Shown piece by piece: positions 7,780 through 50,896 of a DNA stretch of 54,176 bases. The notes beneath the pieces are model-generated. The model did no database searches, had not been told where the DNA came from, and saw nothing but the letters and a program-made list of their open reading frames with translations. Each line of letters starts with the position of its first letter. Position 1 is the stretch's first letter. Made by a program: the position numbers and the translations under genes. Location of the stretch: the IMG/VR virus record IMGVR_UViG_2563366830_000017, positions 1 to 54,176 of that record, one strand, 5' to 3'. Origin of the DNA: a virus. Taxonomy: Duplodnaviria; Heunggongvirae; Uroviricota; Caudoviricetes.

Positions 7780-8076
7780 TTATACCTCTGAATCAATATC
7801 AACCTGGTGGTGAGCAATGGTTTCAACCATGTACCGGATGTGTTCTGCCATGCGCTCCTGAAACTCAACATCGTCATCAAACGCACGGGTAATGGCTTTT
7901 TTGCTGGCCCCGTGGCGTTGCAAATGATCGATGCATAGCGATTCAAACAGGTGCTGGGGCAGGCCTTTTTCCATGTCGTCTGCCAGTTCTGCCTCTTTCT
8001 CTTCACGGGCGATCTGCTGGTAGTGACGCGCCCAGCTCTGAGCCTCAAGACGATCCTGAATGTAATAAGCGTTCAT
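7780..8076 (-). CDS. gam: RecBCD inhibitor Gam (short 98-aa form only)
   Basis: [38 protein letters not shown]... matches lambda Gam; in-frame stop upstream prevents the 138-aa long form. Confidence 0.9.
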
Positions 8077-8151
8077 GGCTGAACTCCTGAAAATGGCTGT
8101 GAAAATATCGCCCGCGAAATGCCAGGCTGATTAGGAAAACAGGAAAGGGGA

Positions 8152-8442
8152 TTAGCGATTCAGGCCGTTACCGCGTCCGTCGAGAAAAACTTCCACGAGC
8201 AAATCACGGGTATAAGTGCGCTCGATGCCGCGATGCAGATAAAGCCGTCCGCGTAAATTAGCTGATGCAGTCCAGGTACCATCTTTGTGTTTGACCAGCA
8301 TTCCTGGCATGACCGCACCTCGATTAACGGTCTGCGTTCCGTAATGTTGATGAACCATAAAAACTCCTGCCCGTAAGCTGGGCTGCTGAACATATAGAGA
8401 CTTCTGCGCGTATTCAGGCGGTGGATGGCCGCCGGTTGTCAT
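8152..8442 (-). CDS. Hypothetical early-left protein (first ORF downstream of putative pL)
   Basis: ORF track 8152..8562 begins at a non-ATG codon; ATG with upstream GAGG at 8442 gives 96 aa. Confidence 0.4.
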
Positions 8443-8629
8443 AACTAAGTCGCCTCGTTGAAGCGACTGAGGTATGAAGTGTTGAGTTGATTTCAGCTGG
8501 TCACACCGACGTTCACGCGTCCGCTTCACCCCTCGCACTCCCCGAAGCCTGCTGAAATTCAAACTGCGGATCTAAGCGGTCATCGCAACGGTGAAACAGG
8601 TGGTTACCGTATCGTTGTGTCGTTGCGAT

Positions 8630-8720
8630 GAATTTATTTAAAACTATAGTTGTTTTATCGTCAACAACAAAAGTTGTTTTATCGGTTGTTTTAAATATAA
8701 CTGGTTGTATTTAGGATGGA
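8630..8720. promoter_or_regulatory. Putative oL/pL operator region: repeated GTTGTTTT motifs
   Basis: 13-bp direct repeat AGTTGTTTTATCG twice plus further TGGTTGT(T/A) copies; same motif family as the cI-cro intergenic region. Confidence 0.45.
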
Positions 8721-8800
8721 TTTATTTTGTGACTTGCATCGCATAGCGATAACTGAAGTGAGGTGTGGTGGTTTTTTGGACGGTATGAGTTATGAGGGGG

Positions 8801-8830
8801 AGGAAAAGAAAACCCGGCGCGGTTGCCGGG
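8801..8830 (-). terminator. Rho-independent terminator downstream of lipoprotein gene
   Basis: Minus-strand CCCGGC-AACC-GCGCCGGG hairpin followed by TTTTCTTTTC. Confidence 0.6.
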
Positions 8831-8838
8831 TATGATTA

Positions 8839-9219
8839 TCAGTCAGCCCAACCTGATTTCGAGTTTATTTGGGTTTCTGACATTGTGTATTTCTTAATCG
8901 TGTCATCGTTAAAAAGAATAGTAAGTTCTTTTTTCGTACCGTTCGTTCCATTATGGAATAATCCATAGAATGGAATAAAAGTGGTGCCATTAACTTTTAC
9001 TTTTGCAAAGGCGTACTTCCAGATCTCGTTTCCACTGTCAGTATATGAAACAGCATCAGGAGAACCAAAGTAAGATTTAACCTCATTCTTGGTTGTTTTA
9101 CCTTCCTGAAGTTTAGACTGGACACTAATTTCAGTTTCATTTTTGAGTTGCTGGTTGCCTGAAGAAGCACACCCAGCCAATACAGATGCCATCATGGCAG
9201 CGATTAGGATTTTTCTCAT
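8839..9219 (-). CDS. Lipoprotein (signal peptide plus lipobox Cys), moron between immunity gene and pL
   Basis: MRKILIAAMMASVLAGCASS lipoprotein signal; AT-rich relative to neighbours; own terminator. Confidence 0.7.
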   Translation of the reverse strand: MRKILIAAMMASVLAGCASSGNQQLKNETEISVQSKLQEGKTTKNEVKSYFGSPDAVSYTDSGNEIWKYAFAKVKVNGTTFIPFYGLFHNGTNGTKKELTILFNDDTIKKYTMSETQINSKSGWAD

Positions 9220-9448
9220 TTTATGTTTCCATTCATTATAATCAGAAACATCTTAACATAATGATTCGAAATAAAAACCGCTACGAGATAGGGGGACATT
9301 TTGCTGACAGTAGCAACAAATCTCAGCTAACAACGAGAATATTTACTGAAATATGCAAACAGATTTGGCGTTCTTATAGAGAATTTAGTGCAATATCTAA
9401 TCCGAGTGGTATAAACCTTAACCTTCGCTCCCTTAAGTCGTAGATAAA

Positions 9449-10138
9449 TTAACCATGCTTCCTGTACGTCTGCGGCATGCTTCCAATGACCTTACCGAAT
9501 ATGAACACCCGGTTCATCTCGTCTTTCTCGATCGGGTCCCACGGCGAGTAGCTCTTGTTATCAGAGATAACCAGCAGCTTATCCTTCATCATTTGAAGAC
9601 GTTTTACATGGGCAGTGTCGTCGTACAGAAACGCATAGATGCCATCACCGTCGAAAGATTTAACAGTGATATCAACGAACAGCAGGTCACCTGGTTCGAT
9701 CGTCCCTGACATGCTGTCACCTCGCACGTTAATGATGCGGATATTTTCCGCCTTCCTGCCATCGAACATGTGACGAGCATCGTCAAACGAGTACTCAACC
9801 GAGCGTAGAACTTCTACAAACTCACGGTTGATTACACCTGGCCCGGCACTGACTTCTATATCAAGAACGTCAATTTTGAAGTATTTGGAATGGCTGACAG
9901 TTGATTGTATTGGTTGCACTGTACTGTCTGACATATTTCCAACGCCAGAAGATAACCATTCTGCGCGCACACCCAAAGCGTTCGCGATCTCCACGATTTT
10001 AGTTGTTTGGTTAGCTTTCCCTGTTTCGATTTTCTGAATAGCAGCTTGGCTAACCCCGACCAAATCCCCAAGCGCCTTTTGTGTAAGGCCTCGCGCTAAT
10101 CTGGCTTCTTTAAGTCTTTCTGAGAGTGTTGTTTTCAT
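9449..10138 (-). CDS. cI: CI-type repressor (HTH-XRE N-domain plus LexA/S24 peptidase-like C-domain)
   Basis: 229-aa ORF; N-terminal LTQKALGDLVGVSQAAIQKIETGK HTH; C-terminal S24-like region; divergent from cro; not lambda immunity. Confidence 0.85.
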   Translation of the reverse strand: MKTTLSERLKEARLARGLTQKALGDLVGVSQAAIQKIETGKANQTTKIVEIANALGVRAEWLSSGVGNMSDSTVQPIQSTVSHSKYFKIDVLDIEVSAGPGVINREFVEVLRSVEYSFDDARHMFDGRKAENIRIINVRGDSMSGTIEPGDLLFVDITVKSFDGDGIYAFLYDDTAHVKRLQMMKDKLLVISDNKSYSPWDPIEKDEMNRVFIFGKVIGSMPQTYRKHG

Positions 10139-10242
10139 AGATCAAATGTACAACCAAGGTTTTATTCCATCAAACGAAAATGGTTGTTAACTAAAAACAA
10201 CCATAGTTTTAATCTTGATTCGGATTAACCACGGAGGTTGTT
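10139..10242. promoter_or_regulatory. oR/pR-pRM operator region
   Basis: Perfect inverted repeat ATGGTTGTT-N7-AACAACCAT plus a third ACAACCA copy in the cI-cro intergenic. Confidence 0.6.
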
Positions 10243-10473
10243 ATGAACCCAGCAATCAAAACAGCGATCAATATCGTTGGTTCACAAAAGAAACTAGGCG
10301 ATGCCTGCGAAGTTTCACAGCAGGCCGTCTATAAGTGGCTTCACAACAAAGCAAAGGTATCCCCTGAACATGTCGGCAGCATTGTTACGGCTACTGGTGG
10401 AGTTGTGAAGGCATACCAGATTCGCCCGGATCTTCCGAAGTTGTTTCCACACACCGAAAAGAACGCAGCTTAA
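10243..10473 (+). CDS. cro: Cro-like HTH regulator
   Basis: 76-aa ORF divergent from cI with HTH (QKKLGDACEVSQQAVYKWL). Confidence 0.75.
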   Translation: MNPAIKTAINIVGSQKKLGDACEVSQQAVYKWLHNKAKVSPEHVGSIVTATGGVVKAYQIRPDLPKLFPHTEKNAA

Positions 10474-10542
10474 ATTTCCATTTCACGCTCTTTAACAATA
10501 AGCAATCAACTTAACAGTCAATTCAAACTAAAGGAGTCAATT

Positions 10543-11082
10543 ATGCAACCACTTACATACCAACAGACTAGCGGATTTATTCCGACTGCGGTGATAAATC
10601 GTTCTCAAACAAAACAAGCTCCAGGCCACGAAAAAATCCGTGATGCCGTCCGCGCCTGGTCGGCTGTAGATAATCAGGATGTCGTTGCCGCACTCATTGT
10701 GAATGAGTATCGGGAGCAGGGCGACGGCACCATCGATTTCCCTGATGATGTCAGCCGTGCACGCCAGAAGCTGTTCCGCTTCCTCGATAACAAATTCGAT
10801 TCTGAAAAATACCGAAATAACGTGCGTGAACTGACCCCGGCAATTCTGGCGGTACTACCGCTGGAATATCGCGGTTACCTGGTTGAGCAGGATAGCTTCA
10901 TGACTCGGTTGGCTGAAATGGAAAAGGAACTCAGTGAGGCAAAACAGGCTGTCATTCTCAACGCACCACGCCACCAGAAACTGAAGGAAATGAGTGAAGG
11001 TATTGTGTCGATGTTTCGTGTGGACCCGGATCTGGCTGGTCCATTAATGGCGATGGTGACCACCATGCTGGGGGCAATATGA
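10543..11082 (+). CDS. Protein in cII position (179 aa), possible CII-analog/YdaT-like regulator
   Basis: Position between cro and O; not lambda CII by sequence; family assignment tentative. Confidence 0.5.
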   Translation: MQPLTYQQTSGFIPTAVINRSQTKQAPGHEKIRDAVRAWSAVDNQDVVAALIVNEYREQGDGTIDFPDDVSRARQKLFRFLDNKFDSEKYRNNVRELTPAILAVLPLEYRGYLVEQDSFMTRLAEMEKELSEAKQAVILNAPRHQKLKEMSEGIVSMFRVDPDLAGPLMAMVTTMLGAI

Positions 11083-35785: not shown

Positions 35786-36169
35786 ATGCAGAATGATTAC
35801 AATGACCTTAAGCCAATTGCCGAAATGATGTACCCGAATCCAGCTGTAGAGGAATTAAAAGCTATCGCTGACAAAATGTGTTTAAGCGAGCGCCTTGTTG
35901 ATATGAATCAGGTGATGGAAATTACAACCCTGAGTCGTCGTACACTGCTAAACCTTGAGGCTAGTGGAGAGTTCCCGGAGCGTGTGCAGGTTACGGAAGG
36001 GCGTAAGGCCTGGTATTTAAGTGAAGTGATCGACTGGATAAATAATATTCCTCGCGCTTCTGAATATTGCCGCGTACCTGTCCCAAAAAAGCCAGATGCG
36101 GCGCTATGCCTCAAGATTGAGCGTGTACGCCGCAATGCACGGGATGGTCGCTATAAGCTGATTGGTTGA
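35786..36169 (+). CDS. HTH protein (AlpA/MerR-like C-terminal half) immediately upstream of island cos
   Basis: 127 aa; segment MNQVMEITTLSRRTLLNLEASGEFPERVQVTEGRKAWYLSEVIDWI looks like AlpA-type HTH. Confidence 0.55.
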   Translation: MQNDYNDLKPIAEMMYPNPAVEELKAIADKMCLSERLVDMNQVMEITTLSRRTLLNLEASGEFPERVQVTEGRKAWYLSEVIDWINNIPRASEYCRVPVPKKPDAALCLKIERVRRNARDGRYKLIG

Positions 36170-36194
36170 TGAAATTAGGGCCCGCTCTGGCTGG

Positions 36195-36400
36195 CGGGTC
36201 CTTTCCGGTGATCCAGAACGTTACGGGGCGTCAGGCGCGCAGATTCTTGCTATTTATGACAATTTTCTGCGATTTGCCGTTTCCGTTCTTCTTCCTTGTA
36301 ACTTATTGTTTTTACTAGAAATACCCTCTAAAAAGAAAGGAAATGACAGGTGCTGAAAACAGGCTTTTGGGTCTCCGTCATTTCCTTTCTCATTTTTATC
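36195..36400 (+). other. cos: Island cos-like site, same orientation as prophage cos
   Basis: GGGTCCTTTCCGGTGATCC...ACGTTACGGGGCG...CGCG...GCTATTTATGA...AAAAAGAAAGGAAATGACAGGTGCTGAAAAC aligns block-by-block with 20591..20800. Confidence 0.8.
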
Positions 36401-36652
36401 TAAAAGTAAGCATCGAGGCCACCCCAAATGCTTATAGAGGTTATTGTGTCACTATGCGTACTGTTCAGGATTTAAAGTAGCAAGACATCTAGTTGCTTGC
36501 AGTTTTGGCGAATGATGTGAGGTTCTCTATAACAGATAATGTAACAAGTTACTGATATATTCTGTTATGGTTGACTTTAAATTTTGTTGCTCCTTCAATG
36601 AATTATTGAGGGGTAAAAATTAGGCGTGATAAGAATCGATCACGCCTATTGT

Positions 36653-37969
36653 TTATCTTGAAGAAATTTTAGGCAGGCTTTTTAAAAATAAATCTTTATT
36701 TCTACTTGCATCAGTTAAAAGTGTTAGGAATATTTTATCTGTAGGAGTGCATGTGCTCTTGTTTAACAGTAATTCACCAAGTTTCTGTAATCGAGAGAAT
36801 TGCCCATCCTCTTGGATTCTGTGACGAAGTGTACTATCATTTTTAATAACATCAACAAATGCAGAAACCATATTAATATCAAAGTGTTCAAACATTTCCA
36901 ATATTAAAGGTGCAGCCCCATTTGAATAAAAATTCTTCCTTCCATACTGATAGCTGAAACCACGATGGCCAACATAAGTTTTTGTAATGGCTGAAACAAA
37001 TTCAACAATATTATCTTCAGGGACGAAACTCGAGAATGGTAATAATTGGGTTACGATTTTTTCCTCTTCTGACCAATTATCTAAAGACTCGGTGAGTTTA
37101 TTAATGAGAGGCTCAATAATAACTTTTCGGGATGCAGGGCTAATATACATCAGTCCATCTACCAATAGTATGAATTGTTGTGCCTTCTCTATCTTATTGT
37201 TGTTTCCTGAAACTAAATACTTGTCAAATTGTTGGCCGACTTTACGTCGGTCGTCTTTTGAAAGTAATGTCCATAAAATAGGTGCGCAAAATTCAATGTT
37301 GTTTCTGAGTTCACTTGATATATTGGATGAGCAGTATGTGCCAAAAAAACGAGAGGATAATTCACTGATATAAATTGCAGGTAGATCTGAAAAGGCTTGC
37401 TTAACTGCCAGACTATTTTTATTAAATGTTGCCGAATCCATTTCTGAAAGATATGTAGTTATATCTATGATGGCTGGTGGAAACTCTTTAGAAAGAACGT
37501 ATTTATTACAATCATTAATCAGGTTCACTACTTTGATTAAATCAGGGTCGCTACTTTGTGGATGTCCACCAAATAGATTCCTGGTTTCTCTAGCTTGTTG
37601 TAATAGTTTCTGACCTTCTCGATCGATAACTCCTATTTTAAATGCTCCATCTATTAAATCAAAGTCGCTCACATAATCCTGAAAATCTTCATACGTTTTA
37701 ATTTCTTTTTTTTGTTTACACTCTTTGTTGAATAGATCTAGGCTACGATGAATTATCTTTTGACGTAAATCATCAACTACAGCATTCCAGTAAGCAGTGA
37801 TGGCACTTCTATAACCTTTTACAGGAAGAACTCTTATTGCTTCTGAAATATATGGGCAGTCAACTACATCATGCCTCACAGTTGAGAGCGCAGTTTGTAA
37901 CAATGTAACTTCTGTAGAGTCTAGTGGAGTTGGCTGCACTAAATGAGAACTTATCTCTGTACCCTTCAT
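36653..37969 (-). CDS. Hypothetical 438-aa protein, AT-rich cargo gene between island cos and right junction
   Basis: Low GC; contains R-x5-H motif (RNLFGGH); no family confidently assigned. Confidence 0.6.
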   Translation of the reverse strand: MKGTEISSHLVQPTPLDSTEVTLLQTALSTVRHDVVDCPYISEAIRVLPVKGYRSAITAYWNAVVDDLRQKIIHRSLDLFNKECKQKKEIKTYEDFQDYVSDFDLIDGAFKIGVIDREGQKLLQQARETRNLFGGHPQSSDPDLIKVVNLINDCNKYVLSKEFPPAIIDITTYLSEMDSATFNKNSLAVKQAFSDLPAIYISELSSRFFGTYCSSNISSELRNNIEFCAPILWTLLSKDDRRKVGQQFDKYLVSGNNNKIEKAQQFILLVDGLMYISPASRKVIIEPLINKLTESLDNWSEEEKIVTQLLPFSSFVPEDNIVEFVSAITKTYVGHRGFSYQYGRKNFYSNGAAPLILEMFEHFDINMVSAFVDVIKNDSTLRHRIQEDGQFSRLQKLGELLLNKSTCTPTDKIFLTLLTDASRNKDLFLKSLPKISSR

Positions 37970-38322
37970 TTCAGGATTTTCCTATTCTTTTCCATTTTTC
38001 TACTCTATTGAATTTGAAAAAGATATCAAGTTCGTTCTTGCCAGTTTTAAGTGGAAAATTTGATGTTACCTTATTGAGATAAGGCAGTTCTCTATAACCT
38101 ATTGTTATTAATTATTTTTATTTTTTTCCAATTCAGATGTTTAGGGCTAAGAAGTTAAGTGAGAGTTCACAGCAAAACTGCTTCTAGTTCCTCACCGAGG
38201 AGCAAAAGGTTAAGACAGCGTACTTTGTATTGCACAATGTATTGCAGAACCTTCTTTCGAAAGCTACAACAATCAATTTTATATTGAAAATTCAATCATA
38301 TCCTTTCGATATTGACTCATAT

Positions 38323-38332
38323 AACCCAAGCA
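38323..38332. repeat. Right copy of 10-bp direct repeat AACCCAAGCA at island junction
   Basis: Identical to 26989..26998; lambda-like E sequence resumes here. Confidence 0.75.
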
Positions 38333-39113
38333 TGAAGTGAATCCGCAGATGACCCTGCGTCGCCTGCCGGATGAAGATCCGCAGAATCTGGCGGACCCGG
38401 CTTACCGTCGCCGTCGCATCATCATGCAGAACATGCGTGACGAAGAGCTGGCCATTGCCCAGGTGGAAGAGATGCAGGCAGTTTCTGCCGTGCTTAAGGG
38501 CAAATACACCATGACCGGTGAAGCCTTCGATCCGGTTGAGGTGGATATGGGCCGCAGTGCGGCCAACAACATCACGCAGTCCGGCGGCACGGTGTGGAGC
38601 AAGCGTGACAAGTCCACGTATGACCCGACCGACGATATCGAAGTCTACGCGCTGAACGCCAGCGGCGTGGTGAATATCATCGTGTTTGATCCGAAAGGCT
38701 GGGCGCTGTTCCGTTCCTTCAAGGCCGTCAGGGAGAAGCTGGATACCCGTCGCGGCTCTCATTCCGAGCTGGAGACAGCGGTAAAAGACCTGGGCAAAGC
38801 GGTGTCTTATAAGGGAATGTATGGCGATGTGGCCATCGTCGTGTATTCCGGACAGTACGTGGAAAACGGCGTCAAAAAGAACTTCCTGCCGGACAACACG
38901 ATGGTGCTGGGTAACACTCATGCACGCGGTCTGCGCACCTATGGCTGCATTCAGGATGCGGATGCATTGAGTGAGGGTATTAATGCGTCTCCCCGTTATC
39001 CGAAAAACTGGAAGACATCCGGCGATCCGGCGCGTGAGTTCACCATGATTCAGTCAGCACCGCTGATGCTGCTGGCTGACCCTGATGAGTTCGTTTCCGT
39101 ACAACTGGCGTAA
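38323..39113 (+). pseudogene. E: Major capsid protein E, 3-prime fragment (codons ~80-341)
   Basis: PKHEVNPQMTLRRLPDEDPQNLADPAYRRRRIIMQNM...EFVSVQLA matches lambda E C-terminal 260 aa. Confidence 0.9.
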
Positions 39114-39154
39114 TCGTGGCCCTTCGGGGCCATTTTCTCTCTGTGGAGGAGTTC

Positions 39155-39541
39155 ATGACGAAAGATGAACTGATTGCCCGTCTCCGGTCGCTGGGTGAGC
39201 AACTGAACCGCGATGTCAGTTTGACGGGAACGAAAGAAGAACTGGCGCTCCGTGTGGCAGAGCTGGAAGAGGAGCTTGATGACACTACCGATCAGGATAC
39301 CCCTATCAGCCCGGAAAATGCGCTGACCGGACATGAAAATGAGGTTGTATCAGCGCAGCCGGATACCGTGACTGATACGGCTGATCTGGTCACGGTTGTG
39401 GCACTGGTGACGCTGCATACTGATGCACTTCACGCCACGCGGGATGAACCTGTGGCATTTGTGCTGCCGGGAACGGCGTTTCGTGTCTCTGCCGGTGTGG
39501 CAGCTGAAATGACAGAGCGTGGCCTGGCCAGAATGCAATAA
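39155..39541 (+). CDS. FI: Head assembly/DNA-packaging protein FI
   Basis: MTKDELIARLRSLGEQLNRDVSLTGTKEELALRVAELEEEL... matches lambda FI. Confidence 0.9.
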   Translation: MTKDELIARLRSLGEQLNRDVSLTGTKEELALRVAELEEELDDTTDQDTPISPENALTGHENEVVSAQPDTVTDTADLVTVVALVTLHTDALHATRDEPVAFVLPGTAFRVSAGVAAEMTERGLARMQ

Positions 39542-47416: not shown

Positions 47417-50400
47417 ATGGGTAAAGGCAGCAGTAAGGGGCATACCCCGCGCGAAGCGAAGGACAACCTGAAATCCACGCAGCTGCTGAGTGTGATTGAT
47501 GCCATCAGCGAAGGGCCGATTGAAGGTCCGGTGGATGGATTAAAAAGCGTGCTGCTGAACAGTACGCCGGTGCTGGACAGTGAGGGGAATACCAATATAT
47601 CCGGCGTCACGGTGGTGTTCCGGGCAGGTGAGCAGGAGCAGTCACCGCCGGAGGGATTTGAATCCTCCGGCTCCGAGACGGTGCTGGGTACGGAAGTGAA
47701 ATATGACACGCCGATCACCCGCACCATTACGTCGGCAAACATCGACCGTCTGCGCTTTACCTTCGGTGTACAGGCACTGGTGGAAACCACCTCAAAGGGT
47801 GACAGGAATCCGTCGGAAGTCCGTCTGCTGGTTCAGATACAGCGTAATGGTGGCTGGGTGACGGAAAAAGACATCACCATTAAGGGCAAAACCACCTCGC
47901 AGTATCTGGCCTCGGTGGTGGTGGGTAACCTGCCGCCGCGCCCGTTCAATATACGGATGCGCAGGATGACGCCGGACAGCACCACAGACCAGCTGCAGAA
48001 CAAAACGCTCTGGTCGTCATACACCGAAATCATCGATGTGAAACAGTGCTACCCGAACACGGCACTGGTCGGCGTGCAGGTGGATTCGGAGCAGTTCGGC
48101 AGCCAGCAGGTGAGCCGTAATTATCATCTGCGCGGGCGCATTCTGCAGGTGCCGTCGAACTATAACCCGCAGACGCGGCAATACAGCGGTATCTGGGACG
48201 GAACGTTTAAACCGGCATACAGCAACAACATGGCCTGGTGTCTGTGGGATATGCTGACCCATCCGCGCTACGGCATGGGGAAACGTCTTGGTGCAGCGGA
48301 TGTGGATAAATGGGCGCTGTATGTCATCGGCCAGTACTGCGACCAGTCAGTGCCGGACGGCTTTGGCGGCACGGAGCCGCGCATCACCTGTAATGCGTAC
48401 CTGACCACACAGCGCAAGGCGTGGGATGTGCTCAGTGATTTTTGCTCGGCGATGCGCTGTATGCCGGTATGGAACGGGCAGACGCTGACGTTCGTGCAGG
48501 ACCGACCGTCAGATAAGGTGTGGACCTACAACCGCAGTAATGTGGTGATGCCGGATGATGGCGCGCCGTTCCGCTACAGCTTCAGCGCCCTGAAGGACCG
48601 CCATAATGCCGTTGAGGTGAACTGGATTGACCCGAACAACGGCTGGGAGACGGCGACAGAGCTTGTGGAGGACACGCAGGCCATTGCCCGTTACGGTCGT
48701 AACGTCACGAAGATGGATGCTTTTGGCTGTACCAGCCGGGGGCAGGCACACCGCGCCGGGCTGTGGCTGATTAAAACAGAACTGCTGGAAACGCAGACCG
48801 TGGACTTCAGCGTGGGTGCCGAAGGGCTTCGCCATGTACCGGGCGATGTCATTGAAATCTGCGATGATGACTATGCCGGTATCAGCACCGGCGGGCGCGT
48901 GCTGGCGGTAAACAGCCAGACCCGGACGCTGACGCTCGACCGTGAAATCACGCTGCCATCTTCCGGCACCACGCTGATAAGCCTGGTTGACGGGCAGGGG
49001 AGTCCGGTCAGCGTGGAGGTTCAGTCCGTCACCGACGGCGTGAAGGTAAAAGTGAGCCGTGTTCCTGACGGTGTTGCTGAATACAGCGTATGGGGGCTGA
49101 AGCTGCCGACGCTGCGCCAGCGACTGTTCCGCTGCGTGAGTATCCGTGAGAACGACGACGGCACGTATGCCATCACCGCCGTGCAGCATGTGCCGGAAAA
49201 AGAGGCCATCGTGGATAACGGGGCGCACTTTGACGGCGAACAGAGTGGCACGGTGAATGGTGTCACGCCGCCAGCGGTGCAGCACCTGACCGCAGAAGTC
49301 ACTGCAGACAGCGGGGAATATCAGGTGCTGGCGCGATGGGACACACCGAAGGTGGTGAAGGGCGTGAGCTTCCTGCTTCGCCTGACCGTGGCAGCGGATG
49401 ACGGCAGTGAGCGGCTGGTCAGCACGGCCCGGACGACGGAAACCACATACCGCTTCACGCAACTGGCGCTGGGAAACTACAGGCTGACAGTCCGGGCGGC
49501 AAATGCCTGGGGGCAGCAGGGCGATCCGGCATCGGTATCGTTCCGTATTGCCGCACCGGCAGCGCCGTCGCGGATTGAGCTGACGCCGGGCTATTTTCAG
49601 ATAACCGCCACGCCCCATCTTGCCGTTTATGATCCGACGGTACAGTTTGAGTTCTGGTTCTCGGAAAAGCGGATTGCGGATATCAGGCAGGTTGAAACCA
49701 CAGCCCGCTATCTTGGCACGGCGCTGTACTGGATAGCTGCCAGTATCAATATCAAACCGGGCCATGATTATTATTTTTACATCCGCAGTGTGAACACCGT
49801 TGGCAAATCGGCATTTGTGGAGGCTGTTGGCCAGCCGAGTGATGATGCATCCGGCTATCTGGATTTTTTCAAAGGCGAGATAGGGAAAAGCCATCTGGCT
49901 CAGGAGCTGTGGACGCAGATTGATAACGGTCAGCTTGCGCCTGACCTGGCTGAAATCAGGACGTCCATTACGGATGTCAGCAATGAAATCACGCAGACCG
50001 TCAATAAGAAACTGGAAGACCAGAGTGCGGCAATTCAGCAGATACAGAAGGTTCAGGTTGATACAAATAATAACCTGAACAGCATGTGGGCTGTGAAGCT
50101 GCAGCAGATGCAGGACGGACGCCTTTATATCGCGGGTATTGGTGCCGGTATTGAGAACACCCCTGACGGCATGCAGAGTCAGGTGCTGCTGGCGGCGGAC
50201 AGGATTGCGATGGTTAATCCTGCGAATGGCAACACAAAGCCGATGTTTGTTGGTCAGGGCGATCAGATATTTATGAATGAAGTGTTCCTGAAATATCTGA
50301 CGGCTCCCACCATTACCAGCGGCGGTAATCCTCCGGCATTTTCCCTGACACCGGACGGGCGGCTGACGGCGAAAAATGCCGATATCAGCGGTAACGTGAA

Positions 50401-50896
50401 TGCGAACTCCGGGACGCTCAACAACGTCACGATTAACGAGAACTGCCGGGTTCTGGGAAAACTGTCCGCGAACCAGATTGAAGGCGATCTCGTTAAAACA
50501 GTGGGCAAAGCTTTCCCCCGGGACTCCCGTGCACCGGAACGGTGGCCATCAGGGACCATTACCGTCAGGATTTATGACGATCAGCCGTTTGACCGGCAGA
50601 TTGTTATTCCGGCGGTGGCATTCAGCGGCGCTAAACATGAGAGAGAGCATACTGATATTTACTCCTCATGCCGTCTGATAGTGCGGAAAAACGGTGCTGA
50701 AATTTATAACCGTACCGCGCTGGATAATACGCTGATTTACAGTGGCGTTATTGATATGCCTGCCGGTCACGGTCACATGACGCTGGAGTTTTCGGTGTCA
50801 GCATGGCTGGTAAATGACTGGTATCCCACAGCAAGTATCAGCGATTTGCTGGTTGTGGTGATGAAGAAAGCCACCGCAGGCATCAGTATCAGCTGA
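47417..50896 (+). CDS. J: Central tail fibre/host specificity protein J (divergent C-terminal receptor-binding region)
   Basis: 1159 aa; first ~800 aa lambda-J-like, C-terminal third diverges. Confidence 0.93.

Follow-up and report, generated by a model that had tools for sequence, protein, structure and literature searches.

A BamE-fold lipoprotein gene in the rexAB position of a lambda-like prophage and its possible role in envelope-level exclusion

In phage lambda, the genes rexA and rexB lie downstream of the repressor gene cI, on the cI strand and before the terminator that precedes oL/pL. They encode a cytoplasmic sensor and an inner-membrane channel, and a gene at this site can be transcribed in the lysogen. 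The same site and orientation are occupied by a gene for a small lipoprotein (8839–9219, minus strand) in a stretch of DNA of 54,176 nucleotides (nt) from a virus of the class Caudoviricetes (IMG/VR record IMGVR_UViG_2563366830_000017, positions 1 to 54,176); the whole of this stretch is referred to here as the window. In contrast to the two lambda genes, this is a single gene whose product is predicted to reside in the outer membrane. No homology to RexA or RexB was found among its Pfam, PHROGs and PADLOC matches, and a relation between the folds is likewise absent.

Prophage envelope proteins such as Bor, Lom, Cor, gp15 and SieA shape host range, the outcome of phage therapy and sometimes virulence. 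Several known systems resemble the lipoprotein in part. HK97 gene 15, which encodes an exclusion protein, was the first moron to be described and lies at the tape-measure site (PMC3594210). About 23 close homologues of the lipoprotein gene share its position, flanked by the genes for the tail chaperone and the tape measure. Both products are small envelope proteins encoded by one gene each; gene 15 has transcription signals of its own, and the lipoprotein gene has a candidate promoter. HK97 gp15 is, however, a YebO-like inner-membrane protein, whereas the lipoprotein is predicted to be sorted by the Lol pathway and has a BamE-like fold, and the two are not homologous. Cor, T5 Llp and the mEp proteins Lpp010 and Lpp021 are small phage lipoproteins of the outer membrane made in infected cells or lysogens, as is predicted for the lipoprotein. 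Members of that group are 60–80 amino acids long, are encoded beside the gene for the receptor-binding protein and are matched to its receptor; the lipoprotein has 109 residues when mature, is encoded far from the tail gene J and occurs with differing J ends. Finally, the fold class is shared by BtiO and by BamE-like proteins that confer immunity to polymorphic toxins; they are membrane-anchored and act in the periplasm (PMC12419801). These are paired with toxins and evolve fast, in contrast to the lipoprotein family, which is conserved and was never seen next to a toxin gene in the loci examined.

The reading favoured here, with a probability of roughly 0.35, is that the lipoprotein is an envelope-level exclusion or protection factor, which most likely blocks DNA entry by superinfecting phages and is not tied to the phage's own receptor. 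It is suggested by the combination of a small, predicted outer-membrane lipoprotein, a partner-binding fold, purifying selection and residence at sites known for exclusion or conversion genes.

The immunity region of the window contains the following features:

8839–9219, minus strand: coding sequence of the prolipoprotein (126 amino acids, stop codon included in the coordinates), with a signal peptide at residues 1–16, the lipobox LAGC and the Cys17 codon at 9171–9169
9449–10138, minus strand: cI repressor gene (HTH_3 and Peptidase_S24 domains; PHROG 4), the same-strand upstream neighbour of the lipoprotein gene
10243–10473, plus strand: cro, divergent from cI
8802–8831, minus strand: intrinsic terminator directly after the lipoprotein stop codon, a stem-loop at 8831–8812 (7 pairs, 6 of them GC) followed by TTTCTTTTCC
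8591–8730, minus strand: oL/pL region, a cluster of GTTGT/ACAAC half-sites, 6 in 120 nt against 0.25 expected
8664–8636, minus strand: candidate pL, an inferred promoter with TTGACG (8664–8659), a 17-nt spacing and TTAAAT (8641–8636), reading leftward into kil
10111–10260, no strand assigned: oR/pRM/pR region between cI and cro, where 5 half-sites fall within 120 nt (0.25 expected)

The two half-site clusters, 8591–8730 and 10111–10260, are the densest in the whole window. Judged from their sequence they are the operators oL and oR, which bracket cI and the lipoprotein gene. With 229 nt between cI and the lipoprotein gene, the order is pRM, cI, lipoprotein gene, terminator and oL/pL, which matches the cI-rexA-rexB layout of lambda; the gene shares its strand with cI and is flanked by cI and oL/pL. 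The original prediction, that it sits downstream of cI on the same strand in the rexAB slot, is borne out by the operator clusters on either side of the pair. The same prediction had credited the gene with its own strong terminator, and this part did not hold. The hairpin falls outside the insert described below and is kept in phage PhiR34_1, which is without the lipoprotein gene. Because PhiR34_1 carries the same hairpin, the terminator at 8831–8812 is common to the cI operon and not private to the gene: it is an immunity-operon terminator, the counterpart of lambda t_imm, and ends the cI–lipoprotein unit.

Comparison with sister phages delimits the element. Positions 8500–10500 of the window are 99.8% identical to Escherichia phage PhiR26_1, whose annotation lists a putative lipoprotein for the gene. 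In PhiR34_1 and Turner the cI/cro region and the left flank match at about 96% identity, but the gene is absent. Alignment with PhiR34_1 gives these limits:

8831–9449, no strand assigned: insert of 619 bp in place of 122 bp in PhiR34_1, with blastn breakpoints at 8830 and 9450

The GC fraction is 0.36–0.39 across 8600–9500 as against 0.50–0.53 on both flanks. Morons are recognised by their presence or absence in collinear phages together with deviant composition (Juhala et al. 2000; PMC3594210), and both are found here. A promoter and a terminator of their own also belong to the definition; here a candidate promoter is present and the terminator is shared with the cI operon. The lipoprotein gene is a genuine moron, an AT-rich 619-bp insert that sister phages of the same immunity are without, as the original prediction had it. 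PhiR26_1, with the cassette, and PhiR34_1, which is without it, form a natural pair suited to a clean test of its effect. PhiR26_1 is also unusually rich in envelope and defence morons, namely an OmpD-like porin, Bor, Lom, an omptin (OmpT-like protease), PD-lambda-1 and Ren. A literature search found no paper on PhiR26_1, and one paper on lambdoid phages (PMC12315714) turned out to be unrelated to the lipoprotein-carrying phage.

The product opens with MRKILIAAMMASVLAGC, in which a positive n-region with two basic residues (RK) precedes a hydrophobic core and the lipobox L-A-G-C. A signal peptide followed by a lipobox of the form [LVI][ASTVI][GAS]C is therefore present (MRKILIAAMMASVLAG-C), and the earlier description of a 126-residue lipoprotein with a signal peptide and a lipobox cysteine agrees with both the MRKILIAAMMASVLAGC start and the LAGC motif. 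The lipobox cysteine is invariant across a family alignment of 69 sequences. Residues +2 and +3 after Cys17 are Ala and Ser, and the Asp signal for retention in the inner membrane is absent; this combination predicts export by the Lol pathway to the outer membrane.

Among 2000 shuffles of segment 8600–9500, 24 produced a stop-free stretch of 126 or more codons. That the open reading frame (ORF) is a real gene is argued for more strongly by its conservation than by its length. The protein matches PHROG 3135, a family annotated as of unknown function, at E=2.9e-48, residues 1–124 aligning with positions 1–114 of the 114-position profile. There are 228 close protein homologues, and 1332 clusters formed at 50% identity match at E≤1e-3. 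The rate of non-synonymous substitution (dN) is 0.10–0.14 and that of synonymous substitution (dS) is saturated, with dN/dS at 0.035–0.095 in the 8 of 60 comparisons in which dS could be estimated. The gene is kept by strong purifying selection, with dN/dS about 0.05. Two antisense ORFs on the plus strand (8792–8968 and 9186–9443) run across either the conserved gene or the unique spacer upstream of it, have no support of their own and were rejected as spurious.

An AlphaFold2 model of the protein (mean predicted local distance difference test score 85) has the BamE/BLIP-type arrangement of two helices and a three-stranded sheet. Folds of this type generally serve the binding of another protein, as in the pairs of BamE with BamA/D, BLIP with beta-lactamase and BtiO with its effector. 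The likeness raises the alternative that the lipoprotein is a BamE mimic, docking on BamA or BamD in place of or beside host BamE, which would alter the assembly of outer-membrane proteins or block phages and contact-dependent inhibition (CDI) toxins that use BamA. An hhalign probability of 90% against BamE favours such a relation, as does the match of 59 of 69 diverse family members to Pfam BamE (PF04355) at E≤0.01. The lipoprotein itself, however, scores 21.8 bits against PF04355, below the gathering threshold of 23.2 bits, and the BamE model is absent from its matches in an NCBIfam search. The N-terminal BamE segment DINQGNY is unmatched in the hhalign alignment of the family, which has additions of its own, a conserved hairpin insertion (NFIPxVxLF) and an extra C-terminal strand. 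In the model the folded domain begins within about 4 residues of the Cys17 anchor, a tether far shorter than that of BamE, such that the domain would sit against the membrane. By these features and by its carriage on mobile elements the lipoprotein differs from the BamE/SmpA-OmlA proteins of PF04355; it is a remote relative with the BamE fold and not a BamE orthologue, and true mimicry of BamE is very unlikely. Among solved structures searched by sequence, the single protein had no matches and the family profile had weak matches to BamE only (E about 0.05), while the matches in the BFVD library of viral folds were confined to uncharacterised SmpA/OmlA lipoproteins of Pseudomonas phages.

The genomic sites of relatives show how widely the gene has moved. 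The close homologues were compared at 91 loci with 79–100% identity, which are not independent, many being near-identical prophages, and which comprise 59 distinct upstream sequences. Prophages of Citrobacter, Enterobacter, Serratia and Salmonella often carry a member of the family. Close homologues fall at three phage sites, and distant relatives occur more broadly:

64 of the 91 loci: behind an S24 repressor gene on the same strand, with a gap of 48–1514 nt
About 23 of the 91 loci: in a moron island just upstream of the tape-measure gene
3 loci: gtr-type site, one beside gtrA/gtrB-like genes (L039) and two (L056, L065) grouped with it only by a shared upstream region
Distant relative in a Klebsiella phage: upstream of the tape-measure gene
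Distant relative in an Alteromonas phage: inside the structural gene cluster
Distant relative in a Pseudomonas phage: beside the integrase gene
Distant relative in a plasmid-type ParA/ParB context
Distant relative in a Vibrio-type integron cassette array
Distant relative in the Salmonella island ROD21 (PMC10655114)

All ten chromosomal loci examined in Citrobacter and Enterobacter lie in a lambdoid or Rac-like prophage, behind the repressor gene and before KilR and recombination genes, and placement is the same in Salmonella phage S107. The tape-measure island is a hotspot for envelope cargo and also hosts other small lipoproteins, secreted proteins, Bro/antirepressor genes, SocA and YafO. No synteny was found in 25 betaproteobacterial loci searched for a conserved neighbour, an operon partner or a toxin neighbour. 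The gene is stand-alone accessory cargo that moves between mobile elements, and since distant relatives occur in unrelated contexts, in Betaproteobacteria with no conserved neighbour, a stand-alone function is indicated.

These contexts bear on two further explanations, which together with BamE mimicry are the serious rivals of the exclusion reading. In the first, the lipoprotein is a conversion factor for fitness or virulence, acting on envelope robustness, resistance to serum and complement or interaction with the host, as do lambda Bor and Lom. The namesake of the family, SEN1984, is a gene of ROD21, an excisable island tied to the virulence of Salmonella Enteritidis (PMC10655114, PMC3198454); near-identical PhiR26_1 bears the other envelope morons Bor, Lom, the porin and the omptin; and the family extends across Gamma- and Betaproteobacteria in unrelated contexts. 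On the other hand, no phenotype of SEN1984 has been reported, sequence similarity to Bor or Iss is absent, and two of the three phage sites have exclusion genes as their characterised occupants (rexAB and HK97 gp15). A conversion role is possible, though doubtful. The second explanation, which is unlikely, makes the lipoprotein an orphan immunity protein against a periplasm-acting toxin of competitors, such as an effector of type VI secretion or CDI systems or a colicin M-like bacteriocin. Membrane-anchored BamE-like proteins are reported to be the most widely distributed immunity proteins of the lipocone and colicin M-like polymorphic toxins (PMC12419801), and the solitary carriage of the lipoprotein gene, on mobile elements and among integron cassettes, is typical of orphan immunity genes. 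Those immunity proteins are described as fast-evolving, however, whereas the lipoprotein family retains 79–85% identity across genera under the purifying selection described above. The annotated gene tables that were examined list no toxin gene beside it, and the 25 betaproteobacterial loci have no conserved neighbour in common.

Two sets of neighbouring genes were seen at these sites. In the Citrobacter and Enterobacter prophages (loci L004–L013; 8410–8722, minus strand) a convergent ORF of 68–74 amino acids lies directly behind the lipoprotein gene; it has no Pfam match, and no counterpart was seen in the window. At loci L063–L096, in the island ahead of the tape-measure gene, varying small lipoproteins or signal-peptide proteins, all uncharacterised, are encoded about 0–700 nt downstream of the lipoprotein gene, examples being those that begin MKKTLACLSLILFISGC and MTRISVVAILSLILTGC.

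Upstream of the lipoprotein gene in the window are three further features:

9250–9258, minus strand: candidate extended -10 element TGTTAAGAT (TGnTAnnAT), starting 39 nt upstream of the ATG
9220–9249, minus strand: short leader with a Shine-Dalgarno-like GGAA at about 9227–9230, conserved in alignments
9259–9448, minus strand: spacer from the cI stop codon to the cassette, peculiar to the E. coli version and with no notable ORF

In 38 of the 59 distinct upstream sequences, from the cI slot and the tape-measure slot alike, the motif TGnTAnnAT stands at a fixed 39–44 nt before the ATG. It takes the form TGTTAAGAT or TGTTAGGAT, and six further upstream sequences have the hexamer without the TG. 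Homology between cassette copies starts at this motif, about 45 nt upstream of the ATG, and in many copies the motif block follows immediately upon the hairpin and T-run terminator of the upstream gene. Such insulation would make sense only if the block supplies a promoter. In 12 distinct upstream regions, by contrast, the gene lies 48 nt behind cI with neither motif nor terminator, so that these copies would have to be co-transcribed with cI. The 229-nt spacer of the window was considered as a structured RNA or a gene remnant; its fold z-score is -0.76 and no clear terminator was found in it, and blastn matches to 9260–9448 were confined to cassette copies from E. coli. As the spacer has no significant structure, read-through from pRM or pRE is also plausible. 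The lipoprotein gene lies outside the lytic transcripts from pL and pR, and expression from the repressed prophage appears likely from this arrangement. Most cassette copies, among them those at L003–L013 and at many IMG/VR loci, also have a perfect palindrome of 10 bp, GATTGCAATC, 10–25 nt downstream of the candidate -10 element and before the Shine-Dalgarno sequence. The palindrome may serve as an operator or form a leader hairpin; in the window copy its place is taken by GATTATAATG.

A further explanation follows the example of Cor and Llp and supposes that the lipoprotein blocks the receptor recognised by the phage's own J protein, stopping homologous superinfection and the loss of progeny on cell debris. 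Receptor block is established for outer-membrane lipoproteins of siphophages, including T5 Llp, which acts on FhuA (PMC9586334), Cor, and Lpp010 and Lpp021 of mEp phages (PMC11893012), and the very short tether in the model, which holds the domain against the outer membrane, would suit it. The tail genes tell against such a coupling. J of the window (47417–50896, plus strand) is 82% identical overall to J of PhiR26_1 (36038–39451 of locus L105), with a divergent C-terminal stretch, and the two prophages, which share the immunity region and the cassette, probably use different receptors. An identical cassette is therefore found with differing receptor-binding parts of J, and an 82%-identical copy is carried by a Salmonella phage with an unrelated J end. 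Moreover, the gene was never seen beside J or tail-fibre genes, where cor, llp and the Lpp010 gene lie, family members occur on non-phage elements, and a comparison with mEp010 Lpp010 as a possible homologue found no similarity. Because of the differing J ends, the lack of adjacency to J, the non-phage carriage and the absence of similarity to Lpp010, a role in blocking the phage's own receptor is less probable than one as a general protective factor at the envelope, and must be considered quite unlikely.

The exclusion reading starts from a self-contained moron inserted downstream of cI, ahead of the immunity terminator, in a lambda-like prophage. In the lysogen it would be transcribed leftward from its own putative extended -10 promoter, TGTTAAGAT (9258–9250), read-through from pRM or pRE across cI would probably contribute, and transcription would stop at the shared terminator at 8831–8812. 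The prolipoprotein would be lipidated at Cys17 and, with Ala at +2, passed by the Lol pathway to the inner leaflet of the outer membrane. There it may bind a conserved envelope component at the periplasmic face. The lysogen would thereby be protected against an envelope-crossing agent, most likely at the DNA-entry step of superinfecting phages after adsorption, and the lipoprotein would act as a general exclusion factor and not as a blocker of the prophage's own receptor.

Several points weigh against this proposal. Experimental characterisation is absent for every member of the family, PHROG 3135 being of unknown function and SEN1984 uncharacterised. No family of the PADLOC-DB 2.0 defence models matched at E≤1, and a literature search found no paper linking BamE-like lipoproteins to exclusion. 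The -10 element is a consensus match only, and a sigma-70 scan did not call it. In addition, the window copy is without the upstream terminator seen elsewhere, so that pRM read-through and an own promoter may contribute in any proportion. The virulence-island, plasmid-type and integron contexts fit a non-phage role equally well, be it toxin immunity, resistance to serum or stress, or adhesion.

A more far-reaching version holds that SEN1984-family lipoproteins are mobile BamE mimics which dock, from the periplasmic side, on the BAM complex or another essential barrel such as LptD and close a generic route of entry on which unrelated phages or contact-dependent toxins rely. This is a speculative and rather improbable idea; if true, it would define a new, broad class of single-gene envelope exclusion carried on prophages, islands, plasmids and integrons across Proteobacteria. 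Even as a simpler exclusion or immunity factor, the lipoprotein would extend the known envelope defences by a new protein family and a new fold and would account for one recurrent occupant of the rex slot. The family is common and highly conserved, has moved repeatedly among the three best-known moron sites and has no assigned function, all of which are reasons to test it.

The family was catalogued before (PHROG 3135; SEN1984 family) without an assigned function, and a lipoprotein moron beside cI would not, as such, surprise a phage biologist. New here are the limits of the insert, the shared terminator, the extended -10 motif, the occupation of three hotspots and of non-phage elements, and the evidence against receptor coupling. 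SEN1984 is an uncharacterised gene of the excisable ROD21 island of Salmonella Enteritidis (PMC10655114, PMC3198454), 378 bp long and coding for an exported protein or lipoprotein that its authors predicted to be BamE-like (PMC10655114). It belongs to the same named family as the lipoprotein and differs in lying in a mobilisable genomic island instead of a prophage immunity region.

The exact cassette is present in 69 of 5426 complete E. coli genomes, always on the chromosome. In 66 of the 69 the gene is labelled 'outer membrane protein assembly factor BamE', and the three newest RefSeq records call it 'SEN1984 family lipoprotein'. The NCBIfam release searched gave no match to a SEN1984-family model, and the name comes from these three recent genomes with an identical cassette. 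The older RefSeq label 'BamE' over-annotates the gene. In genome ET201 an IS1 element is annotated inside the matched cassette region, and the match falls in two pieces.

Some observations concern the early left operon beyond the terminator. No N-like antiterminator gene lies in the interval between the candidate pL (8664–8636) and kil (8152–8529). The early left leader opens with a hairpin of an 11-bp stem (8631–8580, minus strand; -23.7 kcal/mol, z-score -3.0), and none of 200 shuffles was as stable. This hairpin may act in the operon as a put-like element or as an RNA element of another kind. It has no Rfam match; a Rfam scan of 8000–11000 at E≤1 returned only two matches at chance level, and the region fits no known RNA family. 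The longest kil ORF (8152–8562, minus strand) has 136 amino acids and a TTG start, and its match to PHROG 294 (Kil) is limited to residues 60–135. The true kil start is probably internal; in the GenBank annotation of PhiR26_1, kil encodes 125 amino acids.
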